A stretch of 64,000 bases of DNA, taken from a phage. The notes beneath the pieces were generated by a model. The model was not told the DNA's origin. It did not search any database and was given only the letters and a program-made list of their open reading frames with translations. The translations under genes and the position numbers were made by a program. Location of the stretch: assembly GCA_032691205.1 (NCBI GenBank), contig GCA_032691205.1_4541.1. One strand, written 5' to 3'. Shown here piece by piece: positions 250 through 39,501 of the stretch (within the stretch, counting starts at the first letter, position 1; every line of letters starts with the position of its first letter).

Positions 250-294
250 TATACTTATACTCCCTTTTCGGAGGGAGTATTTTAAGGAGGGATT

Positions 295-15681: not shown

Positions 15682-16359
15682 CTATTTAATGTTCAATCTA
15701 GCACACAAGCGAGAAACAGTTTTAGCATCCCACTTACCACCACGTGCTGTTGCGATTTTCTTACTATTGAATTTTTCAGCAATAGTTTTGTAAGGTGTAT
15801 TTAAATCTCTAAGGATCTCCAAGCGTTCACGGAATGTCTCTGCAAAAGCGTCTGCTTTAACAGAATTGTATTCCATTTTTCCTTTTCTACGTGCAGCGGC
15901 AGTTTTAGGATTAGCACTGCCTAATAAAACACCTTTGCTTTTTGCTACAGCAAGACCCTTTTTAATACGATCAGCAATACCTCTGACTTCTTGTTCAGCC
16001 AGAACAGACAGAAGCTGTATAACCATTTTATCTGCATCTGGCATGATGGCTATCTTAACATCGATCATTTCTAGAAGAGTTGCTACGGAGGCGTTGTTAC
16101 GACCCAAGCGGTCAACTTTAGCTACCAATAAAGTTGCTCCGGTAGCTTTACACATTTCAACCGCTTTGACCAGTTCCTTACGTTGCTTCCAATCGCCCTT
16201 ACCCGAATAGTATTCAGAAAATTGACCAATAACTTCAGCATCAGGCACAGAGTCTAAGAAGTAACGGATATCGTTCTCTTGGCTCTCCATACCATATTGT
16301 GCCTCACCTTTTTTCTGTTTAGAAAGACGACTGTAAACAACAAACTTTTTCATAACCAC
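15682..16359 (-). CDS. small serine recombinase (resolvase/invertase family)
   Basis: N-terminal VYSRLSKQ..GMESQ and RLGRN motifs; C-terminal HTH-like region. Confidence 0.75.
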   Translation of the reverse strand: MVMKKFVVYSRLSKQKKGEAQYGMESQENDIRYFLDSVPDAEVIGQFSEYYSGKGDWKQRKELVKAVEMCKATGATLLVAKVDRLGRNNASVATLLEMIDVKIAIMPDADKMVIQLLSVLAEQEVRGIADRIKKGLAVAKSKGVLLGSANPKTAAARRKGKMEYNSVKADAFAETFRERLEILRDLNTPYKTIAEKFNSKKIATARGGKWDAKTVSRLCARLNIK

Positions 16360-16423
16360 TCCTAAACCATTGCTGTATTCTCACTTTACAAAACGAATAA
16401 ACACTTGTCAAGGTATTTATTAT

Positions 16424-26645: not shown

Positions 26646-26985
26646 GACAATCTCCTCTCATCGTTAGCCATCTTTCATGGCAATCATCAATCACCAACAT
26701 CATACGATCAATCTTAAGGAATTACAATCGAATTATCATAGGGGATTCCTATCAATTATCCCATATATACCGATTATTTTTGACACCCCCACTCTTGTAT
26801 AAAAAGTAACCCAAAATATCTACGGGGAGAGATTATTTCGACACACCCTGTTTCATGGCAATCATGGCAAGAATATCTAATAGAATCAATATGATATGGC
26901 AAAAATCATGGCGCATACGTAAGAAGTGCTTAACGCGAATTTTCGGGCCGTCAGGTCCACGCAGCGACAATTCCCAAATATCATG

Positions 26986-27008
26986 CGAATGAGAATAATT
27001 ATCATTCG
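26986..27008. promoter_or_regulatory. Fur-box-like palindrome (candidate operator)
   Basis: cgaatgagaataattatcattcg, near-palindromic. Confidence 0.3.
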
Positions 27009-27338
27009 TATTCAATGACTTATGCAAGGCTCATGCCAACATAGCGACAAGGTGGGCCACCTGATTATAAATCACACAAACACTTATTTATCAATGGCTT
27101 GGCAACTTCATCATATGACGGAACAATGTCAACTGATCCCGCTCATGACAAGCAGACTATTATTTATATGAGAATGATTATTATTTAAACGTTTATTAAC
27201 ATAAAAACTAAAATAAATCAAGATTATTCTGATTTTATTTACGTTTAAGAGAAGGTGCTCAACATATCGCGTAGCGATAGTATTCGCCCCCAAAATTATT
27301 GACTTTTATTCTATTATGTGCATAGTGTGCAATGTATC

Positions 27339-27357
27339 GGAATGATGATAATCATCC
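27339..27357. promoter_or_regulatory. Fur-box-like palindrome (candidate operator)
   Basis: ggaatgatgataatcatcc. Confidence 0.3.
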
Positions 27358-27400
27358 TCCCATTGCCCCCATAATTATTGCCATGCTAATTGTTTCCTTA

Positions 27401-27423
27401 CATAATCATTACAATGATTATTG
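27401..27423. promoter_or_regulatory. inverted repeat ATAATCATT/AATGATTAT
   Basis: cataatcattacaatgattattg. Confidence 0.3.
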
Positions 27424-27901
27424 TTATTGCGCTAATGTTATGATCTTGGTAATTACATATAATGCTAATAATAAGCCAGCGCAATAAGTGTAAGCGTCAT
27501 TACGCTTGCAATTATTGCAAGCTACGCAGTAACAAGAAATAACCGTCACCGATGGTTATGATTGTTGGGGTGTAGTTGGCTTATTATTAGCTCGCTATGT
27601 GTCCGGCATAGCGTGCTAATGATGACTCTGTGAATGATTCGTTTTGTAATGATTTCATTCAGGCACTATTTTGCTAATAGTTATTATTTTAATGGTTTCG
27701 TTTGTTATTGTTCGTTAGTTGGTTGTTTTGTCGTGTTATCGTTATCTTGCTTAGTATTCATCATGGTTCGATTGTTTGTCGTTATCAATCATCTTGCTAT
27801 TATTCCTTTGATTATGATTAGTTTGCTTATTGTTTTATGTTGTTTGTTGGTTAGTTGTTGCGAACTATTATCAACATTATAATTATGCGCTTATATTGCA
27901 T

Positions 27902-27937
27902 AGATAATCATGGGTAGATGATAATGGTTATCATTGC
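27902..27937. promoter_or_regulatory. tandem Fur-box-like sites
   Basis: agataatcatgggtagatgataatggttatcattgc. Confidence 0.3.
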
Positions 27938-28142
27938 ACTAGAAAGGAGGTAAAAGGGTGTTTTTGATGGTTTGTTGTTGGTTGTTGATCGATTTTAACC
28001 GCTCTAAATGGCTCTCTAACAGCCTGTAACCCTGGGAGGTATGGTTATTCGTTTGCTGGTTGATTAGCTCGATACCGCAATTTATTCAGTTTTGTTCTGT
28101 GTCGGTTTTCCATAGGCGGAATCTATCAACATTGTTCGGGGC

Positions 28143-28169
28143 AAAAAGAAAGGGCGCTCGGTGCGCCCC
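28143..28169 (-). terminator. rho-independent terminator (minus strand)
   Basis: gggcgctcggtgcgccc hairpin; U-rich tract on minus strand. Confidence 0.6.
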
Positions 28170-28184
28170 TTGTTTTGTTGTCGA

Positions 28185-28604
28185 TTATAACGCTTCATAG
28201 ATTGAGTAGATCCGGTTTGCCAGGTCATTACGAAAGCGGAATTTTTCATCACGTTTAATCATCAGATCCTTAAAACCGTATTCTTTCAATGCTTCATTAA
28301 CTTTATGGCGGCAAACGTTCATATTATCCTGCGCGTCACCAATAAACTTATTACTGTGATGCATTGCTTTGATCTCTTCCTCTAATACCAGGGCAACTAC
28401 ACGGATCGGATCAAGCTGATATGCGGTAACATCCATGCGGCATTGTAAACGGCTTTTAACATCGTTTACCGGATACACTGCAACCTCTTCCCCGTCAACG
28501 TTCACGATAACCAATTTACCATCAATTTCGAAGCCTTTGGCGGCGCTACCGTGACAAAAAGCGTTATCGAAGGAGTAAGCTGGATTATTTGATTTAATGT
28601 TCAT
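28185..28604 (-). CDS. hypothetical protein (139 aa)
   Basis: ORF track; RBS AAGGA. Confidence 0.6.
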   Translation of the reverse strand: MNIKSNNPAYSFDNAFCHGSAAKGFEIDGKLVIVNVDGEEVAVYPVNDVKSRLQCRMDVTAYQLDPIRVVALVLEEEIKAMHHSNKFIGDAQDNMNVCRHKVNEALKEYGFKDLMIKRDEKFRFRNDLANRIYSIYEAL

Positions 28605-29131: not shown

Positions 29132-29192
29132 GGGCTTGCTGTATTGCTCGCCCTACGTGATAAATAATAATGTAAGCGTGATCCGGTGTCAA
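29132..29192 (-). promoter_or_regulatory. PeSL-like cassette (degenerate hairpin + TTGACA promoter)
   Basis: -35 tgtcaa at 29187-29192 (plus-strand spelling); gccctacgtg box. Confidence 0.45.
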
Positions 29193-29321
29193 TAGGTAGG
29201 ATTGTAAAGATTTGATAGTTTATCTCTTTGATGTTTTGTTGTTTGATAGGTATTAGCTATCGATATATAGCGGGATCTTCCGGTGATTATCTTCCCCTGC
29301 TCCCAGGTGCCGCCCGTTCAA

Positions 29322-29355
29322 TAAGTATAACAAAAAACAGGACAAAAACAAGCCC
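29322..29355 (-). terminator. rho-independent terminator (minus strand)
   Basis: aacaggg...ccctgtt hairpin; T-rich after it on minus strand. Confidence 0.45.
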
Positions 29356-29367
29356 TGTTTATTTATC

Positions 29368-29502
29368 TTAAAACCAGGTGCCAACCGTTTCCAATAGGTC
29401 GCTGACTACTAGGACAACATTGATCAGCACATGTTCAACCATGAAGGGGATAAGCGCCAGCGTTGCTACTACGATCCCCATTGTGATGATTACCTTTCTC
29501 AT
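29368..29502 (-). CDS. small membrane peptide (44 aa), not in ORF track
   Basis: Own translation MRKVIITMGIVVATLALIPF...; ATGA overlap with upstream gene. Confidence 0.4.
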   Translation of the reverse strand: MRKVIITMGIVVATLALIPFMVEHVLINVVLVVSDLLETVGTWF

Positions 29503-29789
29503 TGTTGGCGGTTTACGTAAGCTTTACCGTTTACGGTCATCGGTATGGCCTCAAGGTCTGGATCTCCCTTAAGGTCGCGTGCAAGCTCACCGCAGCGGGT
29601 ACCCTCGAATCCGTAGTACTCTGTTGTGCCGTCCTGGAAAGTTTTAGCGGCAAGGCATAGGCGATAATTAACGCCGATCCGGTTTATTGCGTTGATATCG
29701 GTTAGCGCGATGGATTCTGGCAACTCATTAGCCAGTACAGGCGCGTTAATACCAACAACCAGGGCAACTACTGCGATCATCTTTTTCAT
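29499..29789 (-). CDS. small secreted protein with signal peptide (96 aa)
   Basis: N-terminus MKKMIAVVALVVGINAPVLA. Confidence 0.55.
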   Translation of the reverse strand: MKKMIAVVALVVGINAPVLANELPESIALTDINAINRIGVNYRLCLAAKTFQDGTTEYYGFEGTRCGELARDLKGDPDLEAIPMTVNGKAYVNRQQ

Positions 29790-29843
29790 GCGTCTATCCT
29801 CTTCCTATTGCGTTTAATGGGGTGTTACCGCCCCGCTTATGGT

Positions 29844-30080
29844 TTATTGATTGATGTTATGATGAAAGTTATTTTCTTCAATAGCTTTTAAAATAAAAGC
29901 CGTGATCGCTTTCGTGTCTACTTGTTCGAACGTATCAGAATAAGCCCAATAATAATCATCCCCTACTTTCGGCGGGTAAACCTGGACAAGGAGATCGCCA
30001 CCTGGTTGATCTATAAGCTCAACATGCAAGCCGGATGATTCAGCGGTTTTAACGGCGTTTAATACTGTTGCAATACTCAT
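29844..30080 (-). CDS. hypothetical protein (78 aa)
   Basis: ORF track; GC hairpin in 5' leader. Confidence 0.55.
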   Translation of the reverse strand: MSIATVLNAVKTAESSGLHVELIDQPGGDLLVQVYPPKVGDDYYWAYSDTFEQVDTKAITAFILKAIEENNFHHNINQ

Positions 30081-30124
30081 AATCTTTTCCTTTCTGATGT
30101 GGGGCGTTGCCGCCCCTTTGTTGA

Positions 30125-30424
30125 TTAGATCGCTGTTTCCAGTAGTTCGGCTAACGTCTTACCGCCTGATAGTTGGTCTAACGTTTGCTCTTCTGGCAAG
30201 AAATTAGCTGATATTAAACCAACTTGATTTCCTTTGTGCCAGTTAGCCTGGCGGATGATTCCATCCTTTAAAGATTTTACCGCCATTGTGCAACCGTCGC
30301 CAAATGATTCATTTTTATGGTCCATCACTTCATAAGCGCCCAGTTTGCTGCTGTTAGGCACCATTAACGCGAACACATCACCAACAACCAGTTTTTCTAC
30401 GGTAACAATAGCGATAGTTTCCAT
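30125..30424 (-). CDS. hypothetical protein (99 aa)
   Basis: ORF track; RBS GAGGAAAG. Confidence 0.55.
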   Translation of the reverse strand: METIAIVTVEKLVVGDVFALMVPNSSKLGAYEVMDHKNESFGDGCTMAVKSLKDGIIRQANWHKGNQVGLISANFLPEEQTLDQLSGGKTLAELLETAI

Positions 30425-30442
30425 TTTACTTTCCTCATTATC

Positions 30443-30498
30443 GGCGGCACCATTGCCGCCCTACGTGGTAAATATTAGCACACTGCCGATCTGTGTCA
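30443..30498 (-). promoter_or_regulatory. PeSL-like cassette: TTGACA N17 TAATAT promoter + stem-loop ggcggcaccattgccgcc
   Basis: Hairpin 30443-30460; -35 at 30493-30498. Confidence 0.6.
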
Positions 30499-30505
30499 AT
30501 ACTTT

Positions 30506-30892
30506 TTATTCAATATAAATCAAATTATCTTCACCAATGTAAGCCGACACGTTCGGCATAAACTTAGCTGCATTTGTTAGGCGGTTGGCTGTGTTAGTGG
30601 TGTATATTTCAGGGCGATCCCAAAAGCCTACGCCGTGACTGTTACGGGTAAAATGTAAATCATTCCCGATCTGGTTGGCTGTTGCGCCGTCGCTCATTGC
30701 CTCAGAGATAGCGGCAAGATTAGCATTAATAAAGGCTGTTACATCCTGGGCGATCCGTTCGTCCGCGCTAGGAGAAAAATCATAATCAGTCATGTCATCT
30801 ATAAAATTACCTTCATGATCCCTTGCGGATTCAGCAAAAATAAAGGCTTCTTTATAACCGTTGATGATTTCAATAATGATTTCTGTTTTCAT
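30506..30892 (-). CDS. hypothetical protein (128 aa)
   Basis: ORF track. Confidence 0.6.
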   Translation of the reverse strand: MKTEIIIEIINGYKEAFIFAESARDHEGNFIDDMTDYDFSPSADERIAQDVTAFINANLAAISEAMSDGATANQIGNDLHFTRNSHGVGFWDRPEIYTTNTANRLTNAAKFMPNVSAYIGEDNLIYIE

Positions 30893-31104
30893 GCTGTACG
30901 CTCGACAATAATAATAGTTTGCGGGATCTCATTTTCTACTACTAACAAGGCTTTTTTCTGCGTAATAGATATTTTAACACGTTGTAACGTGGCGGTAAAG
31001 TCTTTCATCTCATTATGCGCGGATTTAGTGCAATGCCAGATCTCAGGCTTACCTATTTGCAAGCCGCGTAAAAATTCTGTTTTACCTGTCTTATTCGTGA
31101 TCAT
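30889..31104 (-). CDS. hypothetical protein (71 aa)
   Basis: Track ORF (TTG start) trimmed to ATG 31104 after AAGGTG. Confidence 0.5.
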   Translation of the reverse strand: MITNKTGKTEFLRGLQIGKPEIWHCTKSAHNEMKDFTATLQRVKISITQKKALLVVENEIPQTIIIVERTA

Positions 31105-31114
31105 TTGATTCACC

Positions 31115-31219
31115 TTAACCAATACCGTGGGAAGATAGGATCATATTAGCCATAGTTGCAACCAATCCAACCGATAACGCCAGGCCAACTATTACAACCG
31201 TGAAAATTTTCTCTAACAT
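31115..31219 (-). CDS. small hydrophobic peptide (34 aa), not in ORF track
   Basis: Own translation MLEKIFTVVIVGLALSVGLVATMANMILSSHGIG. Confidence 0.35.
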   Translation of the reverse strand: MLEKIFTVVIVGLALSVGLVATMANMILSSHGIG

Positions 31220-31237
31220 GATTCTACCCTCATTAAT

Positions 31238-31299
31238 GGGCGTTGCCTTATTGCCCCGCCCTACGAAATACATTCTATCAGATAACAAATTATCGTCAA
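31238..31299 (-). promoter_or_regulatory. PeSL-like cassette (variant hairpin gggcgttgcc..gccccgccc)
   Basis: -35 cgtcaa at 31294-31299. Confidence 0.5.
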
Positions 31300-31442
31300 G
31301 ATTTATTTTTTACTTCCCAAACGGAAAATTCGCTGCCTGTTGGGATCATCTTTTTAATCTTGTTTGCTGCCGCTACCAGGTCAACGGCTTGCACTGTAAT
31401 AATATAACCAATTGTCGAGGCTGTTGCGTTGAAAGTTTTCAT
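31296..31442 (-). CDS. small protein (48 aa), not in ORF track
   Basis: Own translation MKTFNATASTIGYIITVQAVDL...; stop lies within the downstream -35. Confidence 0.4.
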   Translation of the reverse strand: MKTFNATASTIGYIITVQAVDLVAAANKIKKMIPTGSEFSVWEVKNKS

Positions 31443-31486
31443 TATATTATCCTTTAATACAGGCGGGATTAATCCCGCCTTATTAA

Positions 31487-31657
31487 TTACTCTTCATCGT
31501 CGCCGTTATAGTATTCAATGCCGTTTTCATCGGTTACAGTGATGTTAACGCCACCGATAGCAACACGATCACGGGCAAACGTCATAGCTTCATTTAAATC
31601 TTCAGACCAAAAAATATTGTGACCTTTGCGCGATACATAAAACATAGTCGGGATCAT
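31487..31657 (-). CDS. hypothetical protein (56 aa)
   Basis: Track ORF trimmed to ATG 31657 because the cassette hairpin lies inside the track ORF. Confidence 0.45.
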   Translation of the reverse strand: MIPTMFYVSRKGHNIFWSEDLNEAMTFARDRVAIGGVNITVTDENGIEYYNGDDEE

Positions 31658-31680
31658 GATTTGTTTCTCTTCTGTTGTGA

Positions 31681-31741
31681 GCGGTGGACCATTCCGCCGC
31701 CCTATGTGGTAAACTTTACTACGTTGTTTGCGTGCTGTCAA
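31681..31741 (-). promoter_or_regulatory. PeSL-like cassette (hairpin gcggtggaccattccgccgc)
   Basis: -35 tgtcaa at 31736-31741. Confidence 0.55.
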
Positions 31742-31742
31742 A

Positions 31743-32078
31743 TTATTTTTTAATGTTTTGCCCTACAAAATTAATCATTTCCTTAAGCTGTCTCTCTGTC
31801 ATGATCGTACCTGGTAACTCTTCTTTAATTTCTTCCGGTAAATAAATATTACCGCGCCAGGTTAACAAACAACCGTTTTGATCTTCGCAGATAGAATAGG
31901 AAAACATCCACTCGCAATCATTTTCAAGCTCCCAAAAACACAAAAAGTCTTCTTTCCCTAAGTTTTCAACGGTTAAACATAATCCGCGACGTGCTGCATA
32001 ATTAGTTAGGCTTTTTGTGATTTTCATGATTTTTCTCTCTTCTTGTGAGCGGCACCATTGCCGCCCTACAAGATACAT
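31743..32078 (-). CDS. hypothetical protein (111 aa)
   Basis: ORF track. Confidence 0.55.
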   Translation of the reverse strand: MYLVGRQWCRSQEERKIMKITKSLTNYAARRGLCLTVENLGKEDFLCFWELENDCEWMFSYSICEDQNGCLLTWRGNIYLPEEIKEELPGTIMTERQLKEMINFVGQNIKK

Positions 32079-32104
32079 ATTACCAGACTAAGCCGACTTG
32101 TCAA
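32049..32104 (-). promoter_or_regulatory. PeSL-like cassette (hairpin gcggcaccattgccgcc)
   Basis: -35 tgtcaa at 32099-32104. Confidence 0.55.
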
Positions 32105-32105
32105 A

Positions 32106-32216
32106 CTATTTTTTCTTTTTCTTTGCTTCCAACCGTCTAAGGTTACGGCTTGACTTATTGCGCAAGGCGCTTAGATCGTCGTACCCTTTCCATGCTTGCA
32201 TATCTTTCGGATTCAT
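32106..32216 (-). CDS. small basic protein (36 aa), not in ORF track
   Basis: Own translation MNPKDMQAWKGYDDLSALRNKSSRNLRRLEAKKKKK; RBS AAGGGG. Confidence 0.35.
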   Translation of the reverse strand: MNPKDMQAWKGYDDLSALRNKSSRNLRRLEAKKKKK

Positions 32217-32225
32217 GTTATCCCC

Positions 32226-32387
32226 TTACTTGTTAGCCGGATTATATGCCAGGACCGCGCCGCTTGCTTTCACGCTTTCCGCTTCATAGTTGCGCAGATC
32301 GTTTTCTGTAAGGTTGAGCGCGATCACTTCCTCGATCTCAACGTCAGCGGCAAGGGCGATCTCTTTGATAATGTCTGTTGTTTTCAT
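32226..32387 (-). CDS. small protein (53 aa), not in ORF track
   Basis: Own translation MKTTDIIKEIALAADVEIEEVIALNL... Confidence 0.4.
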   Translation of the reverse strand: MKTTDIIKEIALAADVEIEEVIALNLTENDLRNYEAESVKASGAVLAYNPANK

Positions 32388-32397
32388 AGTACGCACC

Positions 32398-32517
32398 TTA
32401 TAAGATGATTGATAAGATAGTGATAACGAAAGCGATTATACTGATGGCAAATGTCATCTTTTTACCTTCGGATACTGCCGGATTCTCTACCGTGTATTCT
32501 ACTGTGTACTTGCTCAT
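32398..32517 (-). CDS. small membrane peptide (39 aa), not in ORF track
   Basis: Own translation MSKYTVEYTVENPAVSEGKKMTFAISIIAFVITILSIIL. Confidence 0.4.
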   Translation of the reverse strand: MSKYTVEYTVENPAVSEGKKMTFAISIIAFVITILSIIL

Positions 32518-32537
32518 CGTGTAATCCTCTCGTTTGC

Positions 32538-32597
32538 TTTGGGAACTATTCCCGCCGCCCTATGAATTAAATATACACTATCTCAAAATGATTGCAA
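32538..32597 (-). promoter_or_regulatory. PeSL-like cassette (hairpin gggaactattccc; -35 TTGCAA)
   Basis: -35 at 32592-32597. Confidence 0.5.
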
Positions 32598-32613
32598 GCC
32601 TTTTTCTAAATTT

Positions 32614-32928
32614 TTATGCAGTAAACAAACCATCATTTACAACGGCGGCGATGATCTCCCGCGCCATTGATTCAGGGAAAGGGGCGCTATAGTCCTGGCT
32701 TGTCTCATCGGTATCAGTGATCCAATGATAAGCTAACGAGTAAAAGCCTTTACTAACTGTTTTCAGTGAGATGACGATCACTCGGTCAAGCTTATTGGTG
32801 AATGTTGCCGTTAATGTGTTACCCTCCTGCGTCATGTTGGACAAGTAAGCGGGATCATTAATCAGGGAAAACATTAGCACGGTGTTAGCTTTACTCATGA
32901 TTGCATCCTCAAAGGGGCGCGGCACCAT
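32614..32928 (-). CDS. hypothetical protein (104 aa)
   Basis: ORF track. Confidence 0.55.
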   Translation of the reverse strand: MVPRPFEDAIMSKANTVLMFSLINDPAYLSNMTQEGNTLTATFTNKLDRVIVISLKTVSKGFYSLAYHWITDTDETSQDYSAPFPESMAREIIAAVVNDGLFTA

Positions 32929-32974
32929 TGCCGCCCTACACGATAACTATAACACAATGTAAAACAGGATCAAC
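32917..32974 (-). promoter_or_regulatory. PeSL-like cassette (hairpin gcggcaccattgccgcc; -35 TTGATC)
   Basis: Hairpin about 32919-32935. Confidence 0.45.
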
Positions 32975-33176
32975 CTTTATTTTTCCACGGTGTCAGCTTG
33001 TTAATCATTGGTGATAAATAGCGTTTACCAACGTAAAACAGCACGCCAACTGATGCAACGGCGGCGATCTCATGCATAGCCGACGGGAAACGGGTATCAT
33101 AATAAGATCCAATAATAGCAATAGCGGCAACGGCTGCAACGTCGATAATGATTTTTTCTTGTTTTGCGGTGATCAT
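32970..33176 (-). CDS. small membrane protein (68 aa)
   Basis: Track ORF trimmed to ATG 33176; two hydrophobic segments. Confidence 0.45.
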   Translation of the reverse strand: MITAKQEKIIIDVAAVAAIAIIGSYYDTRFPSAMHEIAAVASVGVLFYVGKRYLSPMINKLTPWKNKG

Positions 33177-33196
33177 AATATTTACCTTTTTGTATG

Positions 33197-33256
33197 GTGG
33201 GGGAACTATTCCCCGCCTGATGTAATACAGTTTAACAGGTCCGGTTATGGTGTCAA
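33197..33256 (-). promoter_or_regulatory. PeSL-like cassette (hairpin gggggaactattcccc)
   Basis: -35 tgtcaa at 33251-33256. Confidence 0.55.
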
Positions 33257-33262
33257 CCACTT

Positions 33263-33448
33263 TTAAAGATATTTTATACTGATAACGTTTTCCGGTTTAA
33301 CCTTGTTGTGATGTGCATCAACATAGATCAAACCATCGTCAGAAAAGCCCAGGATCACGCCCTGCGCAATAAAACCGTATTCGTCACGGTAACGCACGGC
33401 TATTTTTAACGTTGCGTTGTAGGCTGTTTTAAGCTCGCTTAAAGTCAT
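33263..33448 (-). CDS. hypothetical protein (61 aa)
   Basis: ORF track. Confidence 0.5.
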   Translation of the reverse strand: MTLSELKTAYNATLKIAVRYRDEYGFIAQGVILGFSDDGLIYVDAHHNKVKPENVISIKYL

Positions 33449-33465
33449 CTTTGTTTATCCTCTAC

Positions 33466-33496
33466 ATGTAAAAAGAAAGGGCGCTTGGTGCGCCCC
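33466..33496 (-). terminator. rho-independent terminator (minus strand)
   Basis: gggcgcttggtgcgccc hairpin; U tract on minus strand. Confidence 0.6.
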
Positions 33497-33504
33497 TTAT
33501 TATG

Positions 33505-33651
33505 TTAATCCTCTAAATCCATCCAATTATATTTGTCACTCTTCCCGCGCTTTGTTTTATTGCGCTTGTCGCCTTTGCGGATCACTTCCTCGTTCCAGGC
33601 CTTGCGGATCTTGGAAGATTGAATTTTTTCTGCGCGATTAGATGTATTCAT
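33505..33651 (-). CDS. small basic protein (48 aa), not in ORF track
   Basis: Own translation MNTSNRAEKIQSSKIRKAWNEEVIRKGDKRNKTKRGK... Confidence 0.4.
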   Translation of the reverse strand: MNTSNRAEKIQSSKIRKAWNEEVIRKGDKRNKTKRGKSDKYNWMDLED

Positions 33652-33671
33652 TTTGTTTCCTCTTCATATGA

Positions 33672-33724
33672 GCGGCACCATTGCCGCTATATTGTTAATT
33701 TAAGCTGTTTTGTAAAATTGTCAA
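33672..33724 (-). promoter_or_regulatory. PeSL-like cassette (hairpin gcggcaccattgccgc)
   Basis: -35 tgtcaa at 33719-33724. Confidence 0.55.
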
Positions 33725-33730
33725 GGTTTA

Positions 33731-34084
33731 TCATTCATAAGAGCAAGCAAGGATCACGCCTGCAATATAAAGCCAATAATTTTCCCTTTCTCGTTGGATT
33801 TTATCATCGCTGCTATTCTCTTTAATGTATCCCCAGGATGTTAACAAGCGATCAATTTCCCAATATTCGAAAGCGATATTGATATCTGATGGCAAACCTT
33901 GTAACCATGATGCAAGTGCTTTAACAATACTATAATTAAAACGTGATTGGTTATCAGGGTACCAGTACTCGGAATTAAAACGGCGCATCAATTCCGCGAT
34001 CTTCTCTTTTTCGGTTGTAATACCGTAATCATTAAAATCGATAGCGGCAAGTATGTACTCTTTAATTGCATTTTGTGCTTTCAT
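33731..34084 (-). CDS. hypothetical protein (117 aa)
   Basis: ORF track. Confidence 0.55.
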   Translation of the reverse strand: MKAQNAIKEYILAAIDFNDYGITTEKEKIAELMRRFNSEYWYPDNQSRFNYSIVKALASWLQGLPSDINIAFEYWEIDRLLTSWGYIKENSSDDKIQRERENYWLYIAGVILACSYE

Positions 34085-34103
34085 GGTCTTTCTCTCTTTT
34101 TGA

Positions 34104-34160
34104 GCGGGAACTATTCCCGCCCTACGTGTAACAGTTTACTAAAAATTAAATCGGTGTCAA
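34104..34160 (-). promoter_or_regulatory. PeSL-like cassette (hairpin gcgggaactattcccgc)
   Basis: -35 tgtcaa at 34155-34160. Confidence 0.6.
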
Positions 34161-34163
34161 GCT

Positions 34164-34385
34164 TTATTTTGTTACTACCATTTGGTACCCTGTTTCAATG
34201 TTAGTAAATACTGTTATTCCGTCCTGGCGTTCACTCATTAGCATACAAGGCGCTAACATCCTTTCTACTGCCTTGCACTCATTGTAAACGGCGGTTATGT
34301 CTCCTGCGGCCTTGTCTTCTGTGGTGAATGTATCGTTTACGTAAACCTGACCAGCGACAACGGCGACAATAGCGAAAGTGATCAT
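34164..34385 (-). CDS. hypothetical protein (73 aa)
   Basis: ORF track; begins ATGATCACTTT like the next ORF. Confidence 0.5.
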   Translation of the reverse strand: MITFAIVAVVAGQVYVNDTFTTEDKAAGDITAVYNECKAVERMLAPCMLMSERQDGITVFTNIETGYQMVVTK

Positions 34386-34459
34386 GATGTTTCCTTGTTA
34401 GTAGTGGTTTCTCTTCTCTATAGCGCCCATTATAAGGCGCTATAACGAAAAGTCAACGA

Positions 34460-34627
34460 TTATTTTTTAAGGCTTAAAGTACCTAACTTGTCAGCATGAC
34501 GCAGACCAGGGAAGATCCATTTTCCTGATTCATCTTTTACAGGGGCTTTAAGCGTAGCGCCCAGGTTGGCGGCGTTAACTTTACGGGCAACGTTGCGAGC
34601 GGCTTCACGGGTAGTAAAAGTGATCAT
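34460..34627 (-). CDS. small protein (55 aa), not in ORF track
   Basis: Own translation MITFTTREAARNVARKVNAANLGATLKAPVK... Confidence 0.4.
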   Translation of the reverse strand: MITFTTREAARNVARKVNAANLGATLKAPVKDESGKWIFPGLRHADKLGTLSLKK

Positions 34628-34651
34628 GATGTTTTCCTCTTCTCTTTGTTA

Positions 34652-34713
34652 GGCGGTGGACCATTCCGCCGCCTTGATGTAATACAGTTTACTTTATTTT
34701 TGCAGTATTGCAA
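34652..34713 (-). promoter_or_regulatory. PeSL-like cassette (hairpin ggcggtggaccattccgccgcc; -35 TTGCAA)
   Basis: -35 at 34708-34713. Confidence 0.55.
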
Positions 34714-34718
34714 GCGTT

Positions 34719-34931
34719 TTATGAAATAATCGTCAAAGTAAAATTGTAATCACCTGATTGGTACAATACTTTATCACCGAACGTTCCAACACGTTTAACA
34801 TTGCAATATATACCCATAACACTTTTTACATCTTTGATATTCTTCACGCCTGTAATATCTTTATTAAAATGATCGTGATCAGAAAATAAAACTTGACTTG
34901 CATTTTTTAACAGTGTGCGGATATTAGCCAT
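34719..34931 (-). CDS. hypothetical protein (70 aa)
   Basis: ORF track. Confidence 0.5.
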   Translation of the reverse strand: MANIRTLLKNASQVLFSDHDHFNKDITGVKNIKDVKSVMGIYCNVKRVGTFGDKVLYQSGDYNFTLTIIS

Positions 34932-34956
34932 CGTGATAATCTCTCTTCTGTTGTGA

Positions 34957-35012
34957 GCGGCACTATTGCCGCCCTACGTAATACAGTTTACTCTTTTTCT
35001 TTCCCGTGTCAA
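34957..35012 (-). promoter_or_regulatory. PeSL-like cassette (hairpin gcggcactattgccgcc)
   Basis: -35 tgtcaa at 35007-35012. Confidence 0.6.
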
Positions 35013-35021
35013 CAATCTTTT

Positions 35022-35249
35022 TCAGATTAATTCATCCAGGCATAACAGGCGATCAACGTTGAGATCGGTCAGGCTGATGGTTGGCACCTGGTAGGATTCG
35101 ATGTACTCGACGCTTGCATATTCCCCAAAATTAGCAATAGCCCACTTATTCAAGATCTCACATACATCATTAATCTTTTTGTTTGTTACAACTGCAATAA
35201 CCTGGGAAGTGCCAACGGTGCCGGATACGCGAACAATATTGATAGCCAT
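35022..35249 (-). CDS. hypothetical protein (75 aa)
   Basis: ORF track. Confidence 0.5.
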   Translation of the reverse strand: MAINIVRVSGTVGTSQVIAVVTNKKINDVCEILNKWAIANFGEYASVEYIESYQVPTISLTDLNVDRLLCLDELI

Positions 35250-35270
35250 AATCTTTAATCTCTCTGTTGT

Positions 35271-35330
35271 TGGCGGGAAACCACTTCCCGCCCTATGTGA
35301 TACATCTTACACTAATTTTAAACGTTGTCA
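35271..35330 (-). promoter_or_regulatory. PeSL-like cassette (hairpin ggcgggaaaccacttcccgcc)
   Basis: -35 tgtcaa at 35325-35330. Confidence 0.6.
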
Positions 35331-35340
35331 ACTGTTTTTA

Positions 35341-35580
35341 TTACATTCCAACCATCGCGGCGCGGATCGCAGTTTTACTATACTTAAAGCCGTCTGGCGT
35401 TGTAGTGATTCCATCCTGTTTCAAACGGTAGCACATTAAATCAGCCGCCTGATCTTTATTACCGCACTCATTGATCAATCCCAATGCAAACCGATACAAT
35501 CCCTCATCGTTATTAATCCACAGGCTTACATTCCAATGAGTTTTGTTTTTGTGACCGTTGTACATTTTAGATTTAGCCAT
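35341..35580 (-). CDS. hypothetical protein (79 aa)
   Basis: ORF track. Confidence 0.5.
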   Translation of the reverse strand: MAKSKMYNGHKNKTHWNVSLWINNDEGLYRFALGLINECGNKDQAADLMCYRLKQDGITTTPDGFKYSKTAIRAAMVGM

Positions 35581-35604
35581 GATTTTTCTCTCTTTTTCAG
35601 TGAG

Positions 35605-35663
35605 GCGGGAAGTGTTCCCGCTCTCTATGTAATACAGTTTACTCTTTTTATTCGTGCTGTCAA
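35605..35663 (-). promoter_or_regulatory. PeSL-like cassette (hairpin gcgggaagtgttcccgc)
   Basis: -35 tgtcaa at 35658-35663. Confidence 0.6.
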
Positions 35664-35669
35664 TGCTTT

Positions 35670-36023
35670 TTATAAATCTTTTTTACGTTTTACATCGCTT
35701 GCATGACTGTATACAGCGATCCCATTATCACGACAAAAACGGGTAAGGTATGATCCGCGTGAAAACTCTTTCCCTTCCAGGTCAACAACCTTGCTAAATT
35801 CTTCCAGGGCAACGGTATCAAAATGATCACCATAACCATATTGAAACGGCACGTTAACAACTTCAATCAATTTACCGCCGATCTCAACGTCCACGCTTAA
35901 AGAAAAATATGTGTTACCGTAGGACTGTTGAAACCAGCGACGGGCGCTAATGTGAACGGCTTCAATCTCACCAATTTTAAATTGAGTGTTACCCAGGATC
36001 GCAACGTTGATATTTTTAGCCAT
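35670..36023 (-). CDS. hypothetical protein (117 aa)
   Basis: ORF track. Confidence 0.55.
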   Translation of the reverse strand: MAKNINVAILGNTQFKIGEIEAVHISARRWFQQSYGNTYFSLSVDVEIGGKLIEVVNVPFQYGYGDHFDTVALEEFSKVVDLEGKEFSRGSYLTRFCRDNGIAVYSHASDVKRKKDL

Positions 36024-36048
36024 GATTTTTTCTCTCTTTTTGGTTAGT

Positions 36049-36100
36049 GGGAAGTGTTCCCGATAAAAGTTATTATGCTTATACTATCGTTTTTTGTCAA
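36049..36100 (-). promoter_or_regulatory. PeSL-like cassette (short hairpin gggaagtgttccc)
   Basis: -35 tgtcaa at 36095-36100. Confidence 0.5.
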
Positions 36101-36119
36101 TAGTATAAGACTAAAACTT

Positions 36120-36299
36120 TTAACGATAATCGTCGTAGGCTTTATTAACCTGGCGAATATAACATTCGAAAGCGAGATCAATAGAATCATATTCCCGCAC
36201 ATAATCCCCGTAAGAAACTACATACACACCTTTTTGATCCTCAAACGTCATGATGATAGAATCCAGGCCGATGATTTCAGTTTTAGCGATGATAGTCAT
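36120..36299 (-). CDS. small protein (59 aa), not in ORF track
   Basis: Own translation MTIIAKTEIIGLDSIIMTFEDQKGVYVVSYG... Confidence 0.45.
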   Translation of the reverse strand: MTIIAKTEIIGLDSIIMTFEDQKGVYVVSYGDYVREYDSIDLAFECYIRQVNKAYDDYR

Positions 36300-36320
36300 A
36301 ATAATAACCTTTTTATTGTT

Positions 36321-36377
36321 GGCGGCACCATTGCCGCCCTACGTGATAAACTATACCAGAATTTTAAACAGTGTCAA
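36321..36377 (-). promoter_or_regulatory. PeSL-like cassette (hairpin ggcggcaccattgccgcc)
   Basis: -35 tgtcaa at 36372-36377; -10 TATAGT. Confidence 0.6.
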
Positions 36378-36387
36378 ACGTTTTTTC

Positions 36388-36633
36388 TTAGTTTGCGAAA
36401 TATGGCGCGGCGGCTGATGCCGTTAATCTCCAAGTGATTTGGCTATCGATCAAGTATTCTTCATTCTTGATCCGCACGGTATCAATCGAGAAGTTACTGA
36501 AAGGCTTGCTCTTGATTTTACGAACAACCGTTACACGACGGTTATTTTTCATCTCTTTTAACTGAATCCAGGCGTAACCTTTTTCATTGACAAATATTTC
36601 ATTGTGATTGGTGATAGATGATAAGTGTTTCAT
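36388..36633 (-). CDS. hypothetical protein (81 aa)
   Basis: ORF track. Confidence 0.5.
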   Translation of the reverse strand: MKHLSSITNHNEIFVNEKGYAWIQLKEMKNNRRVTVVRKIKSKPFSNFSIDTVRIKNEEYLIDSQITWRLTASAAAPYFAN

Positions 36634-36654
36634 GATTTGTTTCTCTTCTGTTTT

Positions 36655-36714
36655 GAGCGGTGGACCATTCCGCCGCCCTATGTGTTACATCTTACTACTT
36701 TTTTAAACATTGTC
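36655..36714 (-). promoter_or_regulatory. PeSL-like cassette (hairpin gcggtggaccattccgccgc)
   Basis: -35 tgtcaa at 36709-36714. Confidence 0.6.
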
Positions 36715-36724
36715 AAGGATATTT

Positions 36725-37006
36725 TTAACTATATGATCCACATCGTTCGCAGTAGTGATCATCGTCGTCATCTGCTACCTGGCTGATAAAATGATCTACC
36801 TTTGCTTTCAAATTATTATAATTGCTTTCTACTTCCTGTAGTCGTCGTTGGTAGTATTCCAGGGCTTGCACATAGGCCATTTGTTCGGTTTTAGCTTGCA
36901 CAGCTAAATTCATGCCGCGCGTTTCATCGTATAACCAATAACCATCATTACATTCACTAATAGATAGTGTAGGGCTTAGTTTTTCGTGACGGATAACCTT
37001 GCTCAT
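36725..37006 (-). CDS. hypothetical protein (93 aa)
   Basis: ORF track; C-terminal CERCGS. Confidence 0.55.
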   Translation of the reverse strand: MSKVIRHEKLSPTLSISECNDGYWLYDETRGMNLAVQAKTEQMAYVQALEYYQRRLQEVESNYNNLKAKVDHFISQVADDDDDHYCERCGSYS

Positions 37007-37016
37007 GGTGTGCCCC

Positions 37017-37124
37017 TTACTTCAAAATGATTGTTGTGATAACTGCTACGGTGATCCAAAATGGAACGGCTAGAATGATAGCGTTAATCGTTCCAACCGT
37101 CAAACTATTTCCTTTATTAATCAT
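37017..37124 (-). CDS. small membrane peptide (35 aa), not in ORF track
   Basis: Own translation MINKGNSLTVGTINAIILAVPFWITVAVITTIILK; RBS AAGAGG. Confidence 0.4.
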   Translation of the reverse strand: MINKGNSLTVGTINAIILAVPFWITVAVITTIILK

Positions 37125-37153
37125 TGTAAGCCTCTTGCATAATTTCACTATGA

Positions 37154-37210
37154 GCGGCACCATTGCCGCCCTACGTGGTAAATATTATGCCAGTGGCGGC
37201 GATATGTCAA
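37154..37210 (-). promoter_or_regulatory. PeSL-like cassette (hairpin gcggcaccattgccgcc)
   Basis: -35 tgtcaa at 37205-37210 overlaps stop of upstream gene. Confidence 0.6.
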
Positions 37211-37773
37211 AGACTATTTTCAAAGTTTTCTAGTGCGATCCTTTTTTCTTCCTCTGTCGGCTGATAATCAGGAAAAGCATCAACACACAACAACGGCGGG
37301 ATCTCTTCGTACTCTTCCTCTTCCGTTGTCTCCTCGTCTTCCTCCTGGGCTATGGCTGCAATTTTGGCTAATTTTCTTTCAGCTTGAATCAATTTACCAT
37401 CAAGTACGTTTTTTGCCATGTTGTAAGCGGTCCAGGTGATGCGCTTACTTTCCAGGGCCTGATCGAGCGCCGCTATCTTGCTGGGGTATTCATCCAGGAC
37501 ACGAAAAGCCGGATCAACTTTGTACAAAGGATTATCTTTCGCGCCGTCGCTCGCATCTTCCGCACTGGATAAATCAGCGTTACCATTTGCCAGCCAGCCA
37601 GGGCGCACATAACGCGCTTTTACGTTGCCGTTACTACGTGCTAATCTGTTACCTATTTGCTCACCGCTATATCCCGTGGATTCATCGATAAGATGATCGG
37701 GAATGATGCGCGGATCATCTGCTTCATGTTTTACCCAAGACTGGATCACATATTCGCGGCCCATATTAACCAC
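37207..37773 (-). CDS. hypothetical protein (188 aa), acidic C-terminus
   Basis: ORF track. Confidence 0.6.
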   Translation of the reverse strand: MVNMGREYVIQSWVKHEADDPRIIPDHLIDESTGYSGEQIGNRLARSNGNVKARYVRPGWLANGNADLSSAEDASDGAKDNPLYKVDPAFRVLDEYPSKIAALDQALESKRITWTAYNMAKNVLDGKLIQAERKLAKIAAIAQEEDEETTEEEEYEEIPPLLCVDAFPDYQPTEEEKRIALENFENSL

Positions 37774-38023
37774 CTTTTTTCAACAATTGGCATACTTTAA
37801 AAAGACTTGCTGAATCCTTGCAAGGGTAGAAAGATGTACGATAATCACGTACGCCAACCTTGCGGATCTCGATGTTCTCGCATGTTGTTTGATCAAAGAT
37901 ATTTATTTCATCACGCCCCCTTATATAAACATAGTGGGGATGTATTAACGCATATTTTGCTAATCTGTAAAAAGCGTTATCTTTGAACGCGATCACGTGA
38001 CCTTTTAATTTGATGTAAAACAT
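37766..38023 (-). CDS. hypothetical protein (85 aa)
   Basis: ORF track. Confidence 0.5.
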   Translation of the reverse strand: MFYIKLKGHVIAFKDNAFYRLAKYALIHPHYVYIRGRDEINIFDQTTCENIEIRKVGVRDYRTSFYPCKDSASLFKVCQLLKKGG

Positions 38024-38041
38024 TCTACCACCTTACAAATA

Positions 38042-38096
38042 GCGGGAACTATTCCCGCTTTATGTAACATATTAACAAATTATTCGTTAATGTCAA
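38042..38096 (-). promoter_or_regulatory. PeSL-like cassette (hairpin gcgggaactattcccgc)
   Basis: -35 tgtcaa at 38091-38096. Confidence 0.6.
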
Positions 38097-38099
38097 GCC

Positions 38100-38372
38100 T
38101 TAAAGCAAAAACGCTACATCTTGCGCTTTTAGTGTAGTATCAACCATTTTCGGGCTTTTATAATCAACAAAGCGCGCGGTTTTTTCAATAGCGAAACCGA
38201 GATAATCTTGCTTGTTGAAATTACATTCTTTCTTAAATGTTTCCCGTGCAATGGCAATCGCTGCGTCCAGGGATAAACGCCCGTCAATATTGATATTAGC
38301 GAAAGATCCGCCACCGCTCATAGGTTTACCAGTTGTGCCAGCTACGATCATTGTTGCGCTATATGATGCCAT
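38100..38372 (-). CDS. hypothetical protein (90 aa)
   Basis: ORF track. Confidence 0.5.
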   Translation of the reverse strand: MASYSATMIVAGTTGKPMSGGGSFANINIDGRLSLDAAIAIARETFKKECNFNKQDYLGFAIEKTARFVDYKSPKMVDTTLKAQDVAFLL

Positions 38373-38407
38373 GATGATAATCTCTCTTCTGTTACGAGCG
38401 GGAAACC

Positions 38408-38466
38408 ACTTCCCGCCCTATGTGATACATCTTATCAGGTTGTTGTTTGTTGTCAATACTTTTTAT
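38408..38466 (-). promoter_or_regulatory. PeSL-like cassette (hairpin gcgggaaaccacttcccgc)
   Basis: -35 tgtcaa at 38461-38466 overlaps stop of upstream gene. Confidence 0.6.
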
Positions 38467-38660
38467 TCTATCCCTGCAATTTGATTAACGCGCTTGCATT
38501 TTGTAGCGTGCTGGTCTTCTGTAATGACTCCCATTTCTAACAGGGAATCAATGAAAGATAAAACCGTTTCATGATCATCCTGGGGATGACTGAACTCAGT
38601 AAAACCGTTTACTATTACGTTGATTTGTCCAGCTTTCGCCACAATGTGCAATGTTGCCAT
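38463..38660 (-). CDS. hypothetical protein (65 aa)
   Basis: Track ORF trimmed to ATG 38660 (RBS GGAG) because the cassette hairpin lies inside the track ORF. Confidence 0.45.
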   Translation of the reverse strand: MATLHIVAKAGQINVIVNGFTEFSHPQDDHETVLSFIDSLLEMGVITEDQHATKCKRVNQIAGIE

Positions 38661-38681
38661 GATCTTAACTCCAAATAGTGA

Positions 38682-38738
38682 GCGGCACCATTGCCGCGCT
38701 ACGTGGTAAATATTATGCCGCCACCTGGCGAACGTCAA
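38682..38738 (-). promoter_or_regulatory. PeSL-like cassette (hairpin gcggcaccattgccgc; TTGACG N17 TAATAT)
   Basis: -35 at 38733-38738. Confidence 0.6.
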
Positions 38739-38847
38739 CCACTTTTTCAATCTTTTTTATTTTCTTTTTGCTTGCTATATATAAAGGAAAGGGTTATCAT
38801 CTTTCTACCGCGCCAACCAGGGCGCACAACAAAGAAAGGGCGACACC

Positions 38848-39114: not shown

Positions 39115-39116
39115 TC

Positions 39117-39145
39117 TTGACAAGCCCAGGGATAGGGCTTATACT
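39117..39145 (+). promoter_or_regulatory. consensus sigma70 promoter TTGACA N17 TATACT
   Basis: Exact -35 hexamer; 17-nt spacer; -10 TATACT. Confidence 0.6.
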
Positions 39146-39151
39146 GTTTTA

Positions 39152-39370: not shown

Positions 39371-39394
39371 CTAAATGAGAATGATTATCATTTA
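39365..39394. promoter_or_regulatory. palindrome CATTCTC-taaa-TGAGAATG plus Fur-box-like AATGATTATCATT
   Basis: 16 of 19 positions match the Fur-box consensus as I recall it. Confidence 0.3.
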
Positions 39395-39434
39395 CCTTAT
39401 CAAATAAGAATAAATCTCATTTATAAACTTAAAT

Positions 39435-39478: not shown

Positions 39479-39501
39479 TCTCACCTGCATAAAAATTTTT
39501 G

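Follow-up and report, generated by a model that had tools for sequence, protein, structure and literature searches.

A conserved small serine recombinase in the early region of a phAPEC8-like lytic phage

The serine invertases Hin and Gin serve an invertible segment that is bounded by inverted crossover sites of about 26 bp, usually beside the invertase gene, and the known sites of serine recombinases span at least 25 bp. A lone serine recombinase on a small plasmid is classically a multimer-resolution enzyme. In phage P1, a comparable task falls to the site-specific tyrosine recombinase Cre, which can cyclise the terminally redundant incoming DNA and resolve dimers. Why a site-specific recombinase should be retained by a lytic phage is a modest but genuine question, and it is raised by the gene described here.

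The DNA analysed, a 64-kb stretch hereafter called the window, comes from a phAPEC8-like phage of the genus Phapecoctavirus (subfamily Stephanstirmvirinae). Around the recombinase gene, a stretch of 4 kb shares 99.9% identity with LR597654.1 and 97-99% with about 60 further records. An earlier sequence-only reading of the window had assumed a T4-like genome and regarded the enzyme as not a standard part of it; both statements have to be withdrawn, as the phage belongs to a different group, in which the enzyme is standard. The gene appears to be present in every Stephanstirmvirinae genome of the collection, since its matches by organism name (107 Escherichia, 5 'Campylobacter', 3 + 3 taxon-named records and 1 Shigella) equal in number those of a non-coding element that is found subfamily-wide.

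The gene is already known, being annotated in more than 100 related lytic phage genomes. Its GenBank labels include 'serine recombinase (gin)', 'resolvase', 'DNA invertase', 'recombinase family protein' and 'hypothetical protein', and some records carry the clearly wrong label 'methionine ABC transporter ATP-binding protein'. Our literature search found annotation-level remarks only and no functional study of the recombinase. One paper offers the speculation that the recombinase keeps concatemers as single genomes (PMC10282059), and another states that no recombinase is present, the gene having been overlooked there (PMC5374246). Both papers treat these phages as lytic.

The mechanically called ORF occupies 15682..16359 of the minus strand and encodes 225 aa from a GTG codon. 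The start is likely to be the ATG at 16353, two codons further inside, because the GTG falls within the ribosome-binding site and the GenBank relatives are annotated from the same ATG (Table 1). The 225-aa protein of the sequence-only reading is therefore a real ORF, to be read on the minus strand and shortened to 223 aa. The motifs named in that reading are found in the protein (VVYSRLSKQ, GMESQ and DRLGRN), and so is the promoter that it had assigned to the gene. An equivalent TTGAC-type promoter lies directly upstream of the homologue in phi92, FKP3, phiWec179, Tr1, Shewanella phage 1/4 and ICP1, so that each homologue examined is preceded by one of its own. As a class, promoter-like matches in the consensus scan are no more frequent in the region than in shuffled sequences. 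The sequence comparison indicates that the recombinase has its own host-type early promoter, and this promoter suggests early expression. In agreement with the placement proposed earlier, the gene is surrounded by about 60 small ORFs of early type and without assigned function, each block of which has host-type promoters.

Table 1. Positions of the recombinase gene, its upstream signals and the regions of its product in the window
Feature	Position	Strand	Description and basis
Serine recombinase gene	15682..16353	-	223 aa plus stop; ORF, ATG with AGGAG, annotation in relatives, PF00239, AlphaFold model
Catalytic domain and long E-helix, residues 1-145	15919..16353	-	Y7, R9, S11, Q25, R58, D81, R82, R85, E120, E122; Pfam, alignment, model
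C-terminal DNA-binding region (predicted), residues ~149-223	15685..15909	-	motif IAxxLNxxGxxTxRGxxW
Ribosome-binding site AGGAG	16359..16363	-	5 nt before the ATG; read from the sequence
Sigma-70-type promoter, TTGACA-17-TAAAGT	16383..16411	-	consensus scan, 10/12 positions

The resolvase/invertase-family assignment made from the sequence is supported by Pfam, PHROG, the catalytic residues and the fold. The Pfam Resolvase profile (PF00239) aligns over its positions 2-144 of 145 with residues 7-144 of the protein (E=5.4e-18; 65.9 bits, against a curated cut-off of 23.3 bits), and the PHROG profiles 125 'DNA invertase' and 95 'integrase' match with E-values of 1e-32 and 5e-22, respectively. Compared with known structures, the profile of the recombinase family matches Gin, gamma-delta/Tn3 resolvase and Sin at 1e-14 to 1e-17. 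Searches with PADLOC and NCBIfam returned no informative family.

In an alignment of 33 homologues with 31-78% identity, the first eight residues listed in Table 1 for the catalytic domain are invariant and the two glutamates nearly so. The catalytic set of the gamma-delta resolvase consists of R8, S10, R45, D67, R68, R71 and E118/E124; in the phage protein, the nucleophile S11 lies in a Y-x-R-x-S motif, and the equivalence of the numbering is taken from the motif pattern and a partial HMMER alignment. The Ser/Arg motifs on which the sequence-only reading relied thus pass profile alignment, and the set is kept across the homologues.

The AlphaFold model (mean pLDDT of 89) shows an alpha/beta catalytic domain, a helix at residues 109-139 that corresponds to the E-helix, and C-terminal helices at 149-172, 175-183, 188-197 and 210-219. 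Foldseek searches with this model found the catalytic domains of Sin, TP901-1 and Bxb1 with a probability of 1.0, as well as SPbeta, and the longest alignments were those with the large serine integrases Bxb1 and SPbeta. The sole Pfam signal at the C-terminus comes from the 'Recombinase' profile PF07508, with a weak match to residues 189-218 (E=0.003, below the cut-off), and precomputed PF07508 matches exist for the homologues P0073, P0074, P0076, P0082 and P0087. HTH_7 was not detected at the C-terminus at E<=0.1 in the Pfam search. Of the C-terminal HTH claimed earlier, a short helical domain at about residues 149-223 therefore stands, but its similarity is to the beginning of the large-serine-integrase 'Recombinase' domain and not to a Hin-type HTH. 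From sequence and model we conclude that the gene encodes a small serine recombinase with the features of a catalytically intact enzyme, in which an N-terminal catalytic domain is followed by an E-helix and, at the C-terminus, by a short helical domain of predicted DNA-binding function.

Each of the described systems shares part of these features. For the invertases Hin, Gin and Cin, the similarity lies in the best profile match to a PDB structure (Gin, 4m6f, E=1.4e-17), the small size and often the same label. In contrast to them, the phage system shows no invertible segment, no inverted crossover sites, no Hin-type HTH and no adjacent tail-fibre genes. Tn3/gamma-delta resolvases and Sin carry the same catalytic residues and are homologous in the catalytic domain and E-helix (profile matches of 1e-14 to 1e-15; for the catalytic domain, a Foldseek TM-score of about 0.7), at an identity of about 20-25%. 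The phage gene differs from them in that it has neither a transposon context nor a multi-subsite res upstream, and its C-terminus is not HTH_7. The large serine integrases (Bxb1, phiC31, SPbeta SprA and TP901-1) resemble the phage protein in the first helices of their 'recombinase domain', which are similar to its C-terminal motif and fold; however, they are 450-620 aa in length, whereas in the phage protein of 223 aa the remainder of that domain is missing, as are a zinc ribbon and a coiled coil.

The architecture of about 220 aa is itself a common one, represented by 3,848 clusters at E<=1e-30. The best full-length homologues outside phages align over 95-99% of the length, the C-terminal IAxxLN...RGxxW region included, with an identity of 35-40%, and each is the only recombinase on a non-mobilisable plasmid of 5.8-7.3 kb from Klebsiella, Marinovum, Synechococcus or Phaeobacter (for example, Klebsiella aerogenes pIIIF7SW-P1_2, Marinovum algicola pMaD11 and 6.4-kb plasmids of Synechococcus elongatus). 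These plasmid enzymes are like the phage protein in size, catalytic domain and C-terminal region. They are carried by small circular replicons, with about 650 bp of adjoining non-coding DNA that holds palindromes of 32-34 bp, an arrangement that fits multimer resolution; on the Klebsiella plasmid, a palindrome of 34 bp precedes the gene by 35-65 bp. The phage gene, on the other hand, belongs to a lytic replicon of 150 kb and has a spacer of 70 bp, with no comparable palindromic site found nearby. We found no experimental characterisation of the plasmid homologues.

Among 65 Phapecoctavirus records with the gene, nucleotide identity is 95-100%, mostly 97.5-98.4%, corresponding to 11-17 differences, and the protein is identical in 63 records despite a synonymous divergence of 2-3% in the DNA; the protein identity of 99.6% that is reported reflects only the GTG codon of the query. 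Between genera or species, dN/dS is 0.17 against phiWec179 and 0.08 for phi92 against FKP3. These values indicate that the recombinase has been under strong purifying selection throughout the strictly lytic Stephanstirmvirinae, as judged from sequence divergence. The Schickermooser gene has six small frameshifting indels within its first 310 nt, which are either a sequencing problem or a natural knock-out; if real, they would imply that the recombinase is dispensable for plaque formation. Homologues reach 57% identity in Justusliebigvirus, phi92 among them, while the Klebsiella phages FKP3 and FBKp34 have copies with 52-55%. Beyond the subfamily, the gene is also present in lytic marine myoviruses. 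Identity there falls to 35-38% in Shewanella phages 1/4 and 1/40 and in Vibrio myoviruses of marine origin, and a single lineage of ICP1 has a copy with 30%. The sampled tblastn matches include no homologue from the rV5-like Vequintavirinae.

The same gene neighbourhood, with PhoH and HslV on one side of the recombinase and a DprA-like gene on the other, is seen in phi92, FKP3 and Shewanella phage 1/4, and the synteny is kept in the last of these even though its recombinase is only 35% identical. On the basis of this common neighbourhood, the gene seems to have been retained vertically since ancient times. Its locus differs between Justusliebigvirus and Phapecoctavirus: in the window, the ancestral slot (250-294) holds a terminator hairpin only, and the recombinase gene is located about 15 kb from it, on the other strand, among the small early ORFs. 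The relocation fits the cassette shuffling expected in a repeat-rich early region; a terminator-plus-promoter cassette occurs in eight or nine copies at 29-39 kb. The adjacent ORF of 70 aa (DUF7202) is common to T-even phages with about 80% nucleotide identity, which shows that horizontal exchange has taken place at the recombinase locus. In ICP1, the homologue is an accessory gene of a mosaic early region, found in a single lineage (about 8 of about 85 genomes), where the ORF alone is inserted between a resident early promoter and the next gene.

The recombinase has no transposase or partner gene beside it, all neighbours being small ORFs without assigned function, and no flanking repeats were found there. 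Likewise, the cassette boundaries obtained by comparing phi92 with the window, and ICP1 from DRC with the reference ICP1, revealed no flanking repeats or att-like sites. The sequence-only reading had proposed a search for repeats that flank invertible segments; across the window and a 150-kb relative, this search returned only the early promoter/terminator cassettes and terminator hairpins.

No recombination site for the recombinase was identified on the phage genome. The spacer upstream of the gene contains the promoter only, and an imperfect palindrome over the -35 box is not kept in phiWec179 and probably arose by chance. In a genome-wide dyad scan, 12-bp arms yielded 99 matches compared with 68-91 in shuffled sequences, which is not clearly above expectation, and 16-bp arms yielded 18 compared with 1-6; the excess is due to terminators and elements of the non-coding regions, none of which is near the recombinase. 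Two groups of palindromes were considered as crossover sites and rejected. Those of 17-21 bp in two non-coding regions, which resemble Fur boxes, are too short, with half-sites no more than 8-10 bp from the centre. Those of 35-36 bp at 27482-27620 have centres that vary from 5 to about 30 nt between phages, and their arms covary with G-U intermediates, so that they represent stems of a folded single strand. Of the two matters that the sequence-only reading had put up for checking, recombination sites were not found, and the catalytic motifs pass profile alignment.

We tentatively favour the reading that the recombinase acts as a resolvase on phage DNA early in infection, rather than as an invertase or integrase, and that it monomerises or circularises replicative forms. 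A recombinase dimer would bind to a short dyad site on the phage DNA soon after infection, and two site-bound dimers would then synapse; Ser11 would cut all four strands, and rotation of the subunits would exchange them. Circular or multimeric replicative forms would be converted to monomers or, alternatively, genomes with short direct terminal repeats would be joined or circularised. The kind of role proposed is that of Cre-loxP in P1, as a functional analogy only: P1 is a temperate phage-plasmid, and its Cre, unlike the serine recombinase of this phage, belongs to the tyrosine recombinases and has a known site. Among phi92-like phages, BME3 is reported to have a direct terminal repeat of 342 bp (PMC12210895).

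The resolvase reading is consistent with the domain, motifs and fold of the protein, with the strong selection and vertical retention, with the early-type promoter, and with the lone recombinases of small plasmids as the closest relatives outside phages. Resolution of replication multimers, one of the roles suggested by the sequence-only reading, is plausible. However, the lack of a site, the promoter-only spacer and the dyad counts speak against it, and it is not obvious why a lytic phage with packaging from concatemers would have to resolve multimers. A core replicative role is also difficult to reconcile with the accessory status of the ICP1 copy and the absence of the gene from the Vequintavirinae among the sampled matches. 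The Schickermooser indels, if real, are a further point against the resolvase reading.

It is possible, though somewhat doubtful, that the target of the enzyme is not the phage genome at all. A recombinase directed at the host chromosome, or at prophages, satellites or plasmids, could contribute to host take-over or counter-defence, and we regard such a role as nearly as likely as that of a resolvase on phage DNA. It would account for the failure to find a cognate site on the phage genome and is in line with the location among small early ORFs with host-type promoters and with the change of position between genera. The distribution also favours it: the accessory occurrence in ICP1 is a pattern typical of arms-race genes, and the rV5-like sister subfamily, of similar lifestyle, apparently lacks the gene (sampled matches). 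On the other side, PADLOC gives no match to a defence family, the literature search returned no such report, and no positive sign of an external target was seen. Moreover, the complete conservation of the amino acid sequence in phages from widely differing E. coli, Shigella and Klebsiella hosts is more easily explained by a target that the phage itself carries than by host elements, which vary.

A role outside inversion, integration and the resolution of transposons or plasmids seems rather unlikely. The enzyme could, for example, act at a site near the genome end to join or circularise genomes that have short direct terminal repeats, or it could serve counter-defence by rearranging or disabling DNA of the host, of prophages or of satellites, a version that the ICP1 lineage with the accessory copy would fit.

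We consider it improbable that the protein binds or cleaves DNA without productive recombination, for instance in site-specific relaxation, nicking or transcriptional regulation. In favour of such an activity, no paired sites were found on the phage genome, and the palindromes and a structured element near the probable genome end are cis elements that await an explanation. Nothing ties the recombinase to these elements, however. The palindromes of 17-21 bp are too short and the variable centres of the long ones are incompatible with a crossover site, and every residue that strand exchange requires has been kept.

Equally, there is little reason to see the gene as selfish or a relic, that is, as the remnant of a mobile element that the sequence-only reading had envisaged, or as a hitch-hiking cassette of no use to the phage. 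The different loci in two genera, the terminator hairpin left in the ancestral slot, the ORF-only insertion in ICP1 and the horizontal exchange shown by the DUF7202 ORF could be taken in this sense. Relocation is explained equally well by the shuffling of cassettes in the early region, and the gene is accompanied by neither flanking repeats nor a transposase nor partner genes. A remnant would also hardly be expected to show an identical protein in the face of synonymous divergence, low dN/dS ratios and invariant catalytic residues, nor to be kept across a whole subfamily and in synteny with a homologue as distant as that of Shewanella phage 1/4.

An inversion switch, as in the host-range switching of tail fibres by Mu Gin or P1 Cin, is very unlikely. 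The 'DNA invertase' label of many GenBank records and of PHROG 125, the structural match to Gin, and the several tail fibres and spikes carried by these phages would all suit an invertase. Nevertheless, a repeat search of the window and a self-BLAST of a whole 150-kb relative revealed no pair of inverted repeats bracketing a segment, the only inverted pairs being terminator hairpins. When about 65 Phapecoctavirus genomes were compared with the 25-kb tail and tail-fibre module, each matched in one place and on one strand with 96-100% coverage, and 25 kb of the early region around the recombinase was also colinear; records that align there in two places are explained by record starts or ends in this region. 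The hyper-variable early region at 29-54 kb is mosaic, with no inversion seen. The WPEC1/2/4/6 records, which match in several places, owe their seeming rearrangements to chimeric assembly with junction fragments of 77 and 154 nt. Both orientations of an invertible segment would be expected among so many isolates and no inversion was seen, and together with the lack of a Hin-type HTH and of adjacent tail-fibre genes this leaves the inversion switch of the sequence-only reading unsupported.

An integrase for a cryptic lysogenic or episomal state is the least credible reading, for although more distant homologues occur in a small element with a primase and at the margin of a Pseudomonas prophage and PHROG 95 is an 'integrase' profile, the protein has neither the zinc-ribbon nor the coiled-coil domain of integrating large serine recombinases, the phages are treated as lytic in the papers cited above, matches in the plasmid database all have <60% identity, and no match to the gene was found on any chromosome or plasmid of 5,426 complete E. 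coli genomes, which rules out a prophage or stable episomal state. This bears on practice: phAPEC8- and phi92-like phages are common candidates for therapy, and in their screening the recombinase sometimes counts as a 'lysogeny or recombination' marker. The conservation across a strictly lytic subfamily, with no integrated copies in E. coli genomes and no invertible segment, argues that such a label is misleading.

Apart from the recombinase, the window contains an ORF-free region of 1.5 kb (26646-28185) that is homologous to the region carrying the terminal repeat reported for BME3 (PMC12210895), and in many GenBank records the start or end falls no more than about 1 kb away. A five-helix structure is predicted at 27463-27613 on the plus strand. 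We saw no link between this element and the recombinase, and an Rfam search of the window, the element included, matched no family. Its 53 base pairs are 99.7% maintained in seven phages of several lineages, with compensatory double changes in 15 pairs; none of 500 shuffles reached the pairing values of the element, and slid controls gave 23-52% pairing. The invariant G-U pairs indicate that it is the plus strand that folds.

The phi92-like phage BME3 is reported to carry a 342-bp direct terminal repeat (PMC12210895), and the ORF-free region 1 of the window (26646-28185) is homologous to the terminal-repeat region of this phage, with 69-79% identity between window positions 26900-27620 and the ends of the BME3 record PP239276.1. 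This homology suggests that the physical genome end of the window phage probably lies in region 1, ~11 kb from the recombinase gene. Many records begin at a point 10-12.5 kb upstream of this gene, and several GenBank records, ESCO5 and MRostami-2023b among them, have a first base that directly follows the palindrome at 26989-27005 in region 1. The BME3 record itself contains three copies of the 342-bp repeat, and the triplication is probably an assembly artefact.

The palindrome at these record starts is one of several sites of 17-21 bp, with the pattern ATGAKAAT-N-ATTMTCAT, that occur in both region 1 and the second ORF-free stretch, region 2 (~39115-39920). When one whole related genome was scanned, sites with at most two mismatches were confined to these two regions. 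In BME3, the motif is located within the annotated 342-bp terminal repeat and also at its end. The palindromes agree with the 7-1-7 consensus of the E. coli Fur box, TGATAATnATTATCA. They may serve as origin iterons, as packaging signals or as targets of the host Fur protein.

Region 1 also contains a conserved structured nucleic-acid element, in which a 14-bp outer stem encloses two hairpin arms and is followed by a fourth hairpin. Folded as single-stranded DNA, the element yields -45.7 kcal/mol (z=-7.9), and it was found in 133 phage records, which make up the whole of Stephanstirmvirinae. In an alignment of seven phages, its 53 pairs are 99.7% maintained, as compared with 23-52% in slid controls, and compensatory double changes are observed in 15 pairs; none of 500 shuffles reached these pairing and covariation values. 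The + strand is favoured as the folding strand by invariant G-U pairs; this strand is antisense to both neighbouring genes, and a promoter is predicted nearby. The element matched no family in Rfam. The element may represent an unknown small RNA or, alternatively, a DNA structure that serves replication or packaging at the end of the genome.

Features of the window and of one relative
Feature	Position	Strand	Remarks
DUF7202 ORF, 70 aa	16424-16636	-	Full-length DUF7202, E=6e-37; directly upstream of the recombinase promoter
'Empty slot' lacking the recombinase	250-294		Only content, terminator hairpin ACTCCCTTTTCGGAGGGAGT
Palindrome site, region 1	26989-27005		
Candidate promoter near the structured element	27378-27406	+	Predicted
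Structured element, ~150 nt	27463-27613	+	Within ORF-free region 1; conserved
Cassettes, ~70 nt	29149-38745	-	Eight to nine copies
Four palindrome sites, region 2	Starts 39375, 39404, 39433, 39462		Spacing exactly 29 bp
Two 72-nt direct repeats, region 2	39494 and 39632		
AT-rich region outside the window	LR597654.1 62250-62480		Between divergent gene blocks; adjoins tRNA cluster and terminase genes

Outside the window, the AT-rich region of the close relative LR597654.1 contains GTAC-rich direct repeats and an AT-only 36-bp palindrome, and may be an origin or packaging region.

The small early genes are set apart by short cassettes in which a GC-rich terminator hairpin (GCGGCACCATTGCCGCC) precedes a promoter of the TTGACA type, an arrangement similar to that of the mobile regulatory cassettes described for T4-type phages. 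Positions 29-54 kb are strongly mosaic among the relatives, with only 6 records covering at least 80% of this stretch.

As for the surroundings of the recombinase, the ORF directly upstream of its promoter shares 78-81% nucleotide identity with a gene found in T-even phages, including RB33, ATK47 and SHSML-52-1, which provides evidence that genes have been exchanged between unrelated coliphage families. The recombinase gene of phi92, FKP3 and Shewanella phage 1/4 is flanked by homologues of window ORFs 46-249 and 295-489; in the window, the corresponding slot holds a terminator hairpin and lacks the recombinase.

The WPEC1, WPEC2, WPEC4 (PV682947.1) and WPEC6 records, of 155-161 kb, give the appearance of rearrangement and contain 5 kb of joined 77- and 154-nt fragments drawn from six genome junction points. 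We rejected them as evidence of rearrangement, since such fragment chains are a signature of mis-scaffolded short-read assembly. The recombinase is labelled 'methionine ABC transporter ATP-binding protein' in several records of relatives, among them LR597654.1 (18798-19469), MT496970.1 and OR062524.1, a label contradicted by Pfam, PHROG and structural evidence.

The copy in Schickermooser (NC_048196.1 11303-11955) has deletions of 1, 1, 7, 1, 2 and 7 nt, all clustered in the first ~310 nt of the gene, with the remainder and the promoter intact, and is annotated for the C-terminal 128 aa only; it is either a natural pseudogene or the product of a local sequencing error. Among ICP1-like genomes, only ~8 of ~85 have a homologue, which is 30% identical. 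Comparison of the 2017 DRC isolates of ICP1 with the reference ICP1 reveals an insertion of the ORF only, between gp39 and its resident upstream promoter, and the ICP1 homologue is embedded in a mosaic block with further lineage-specific genes.
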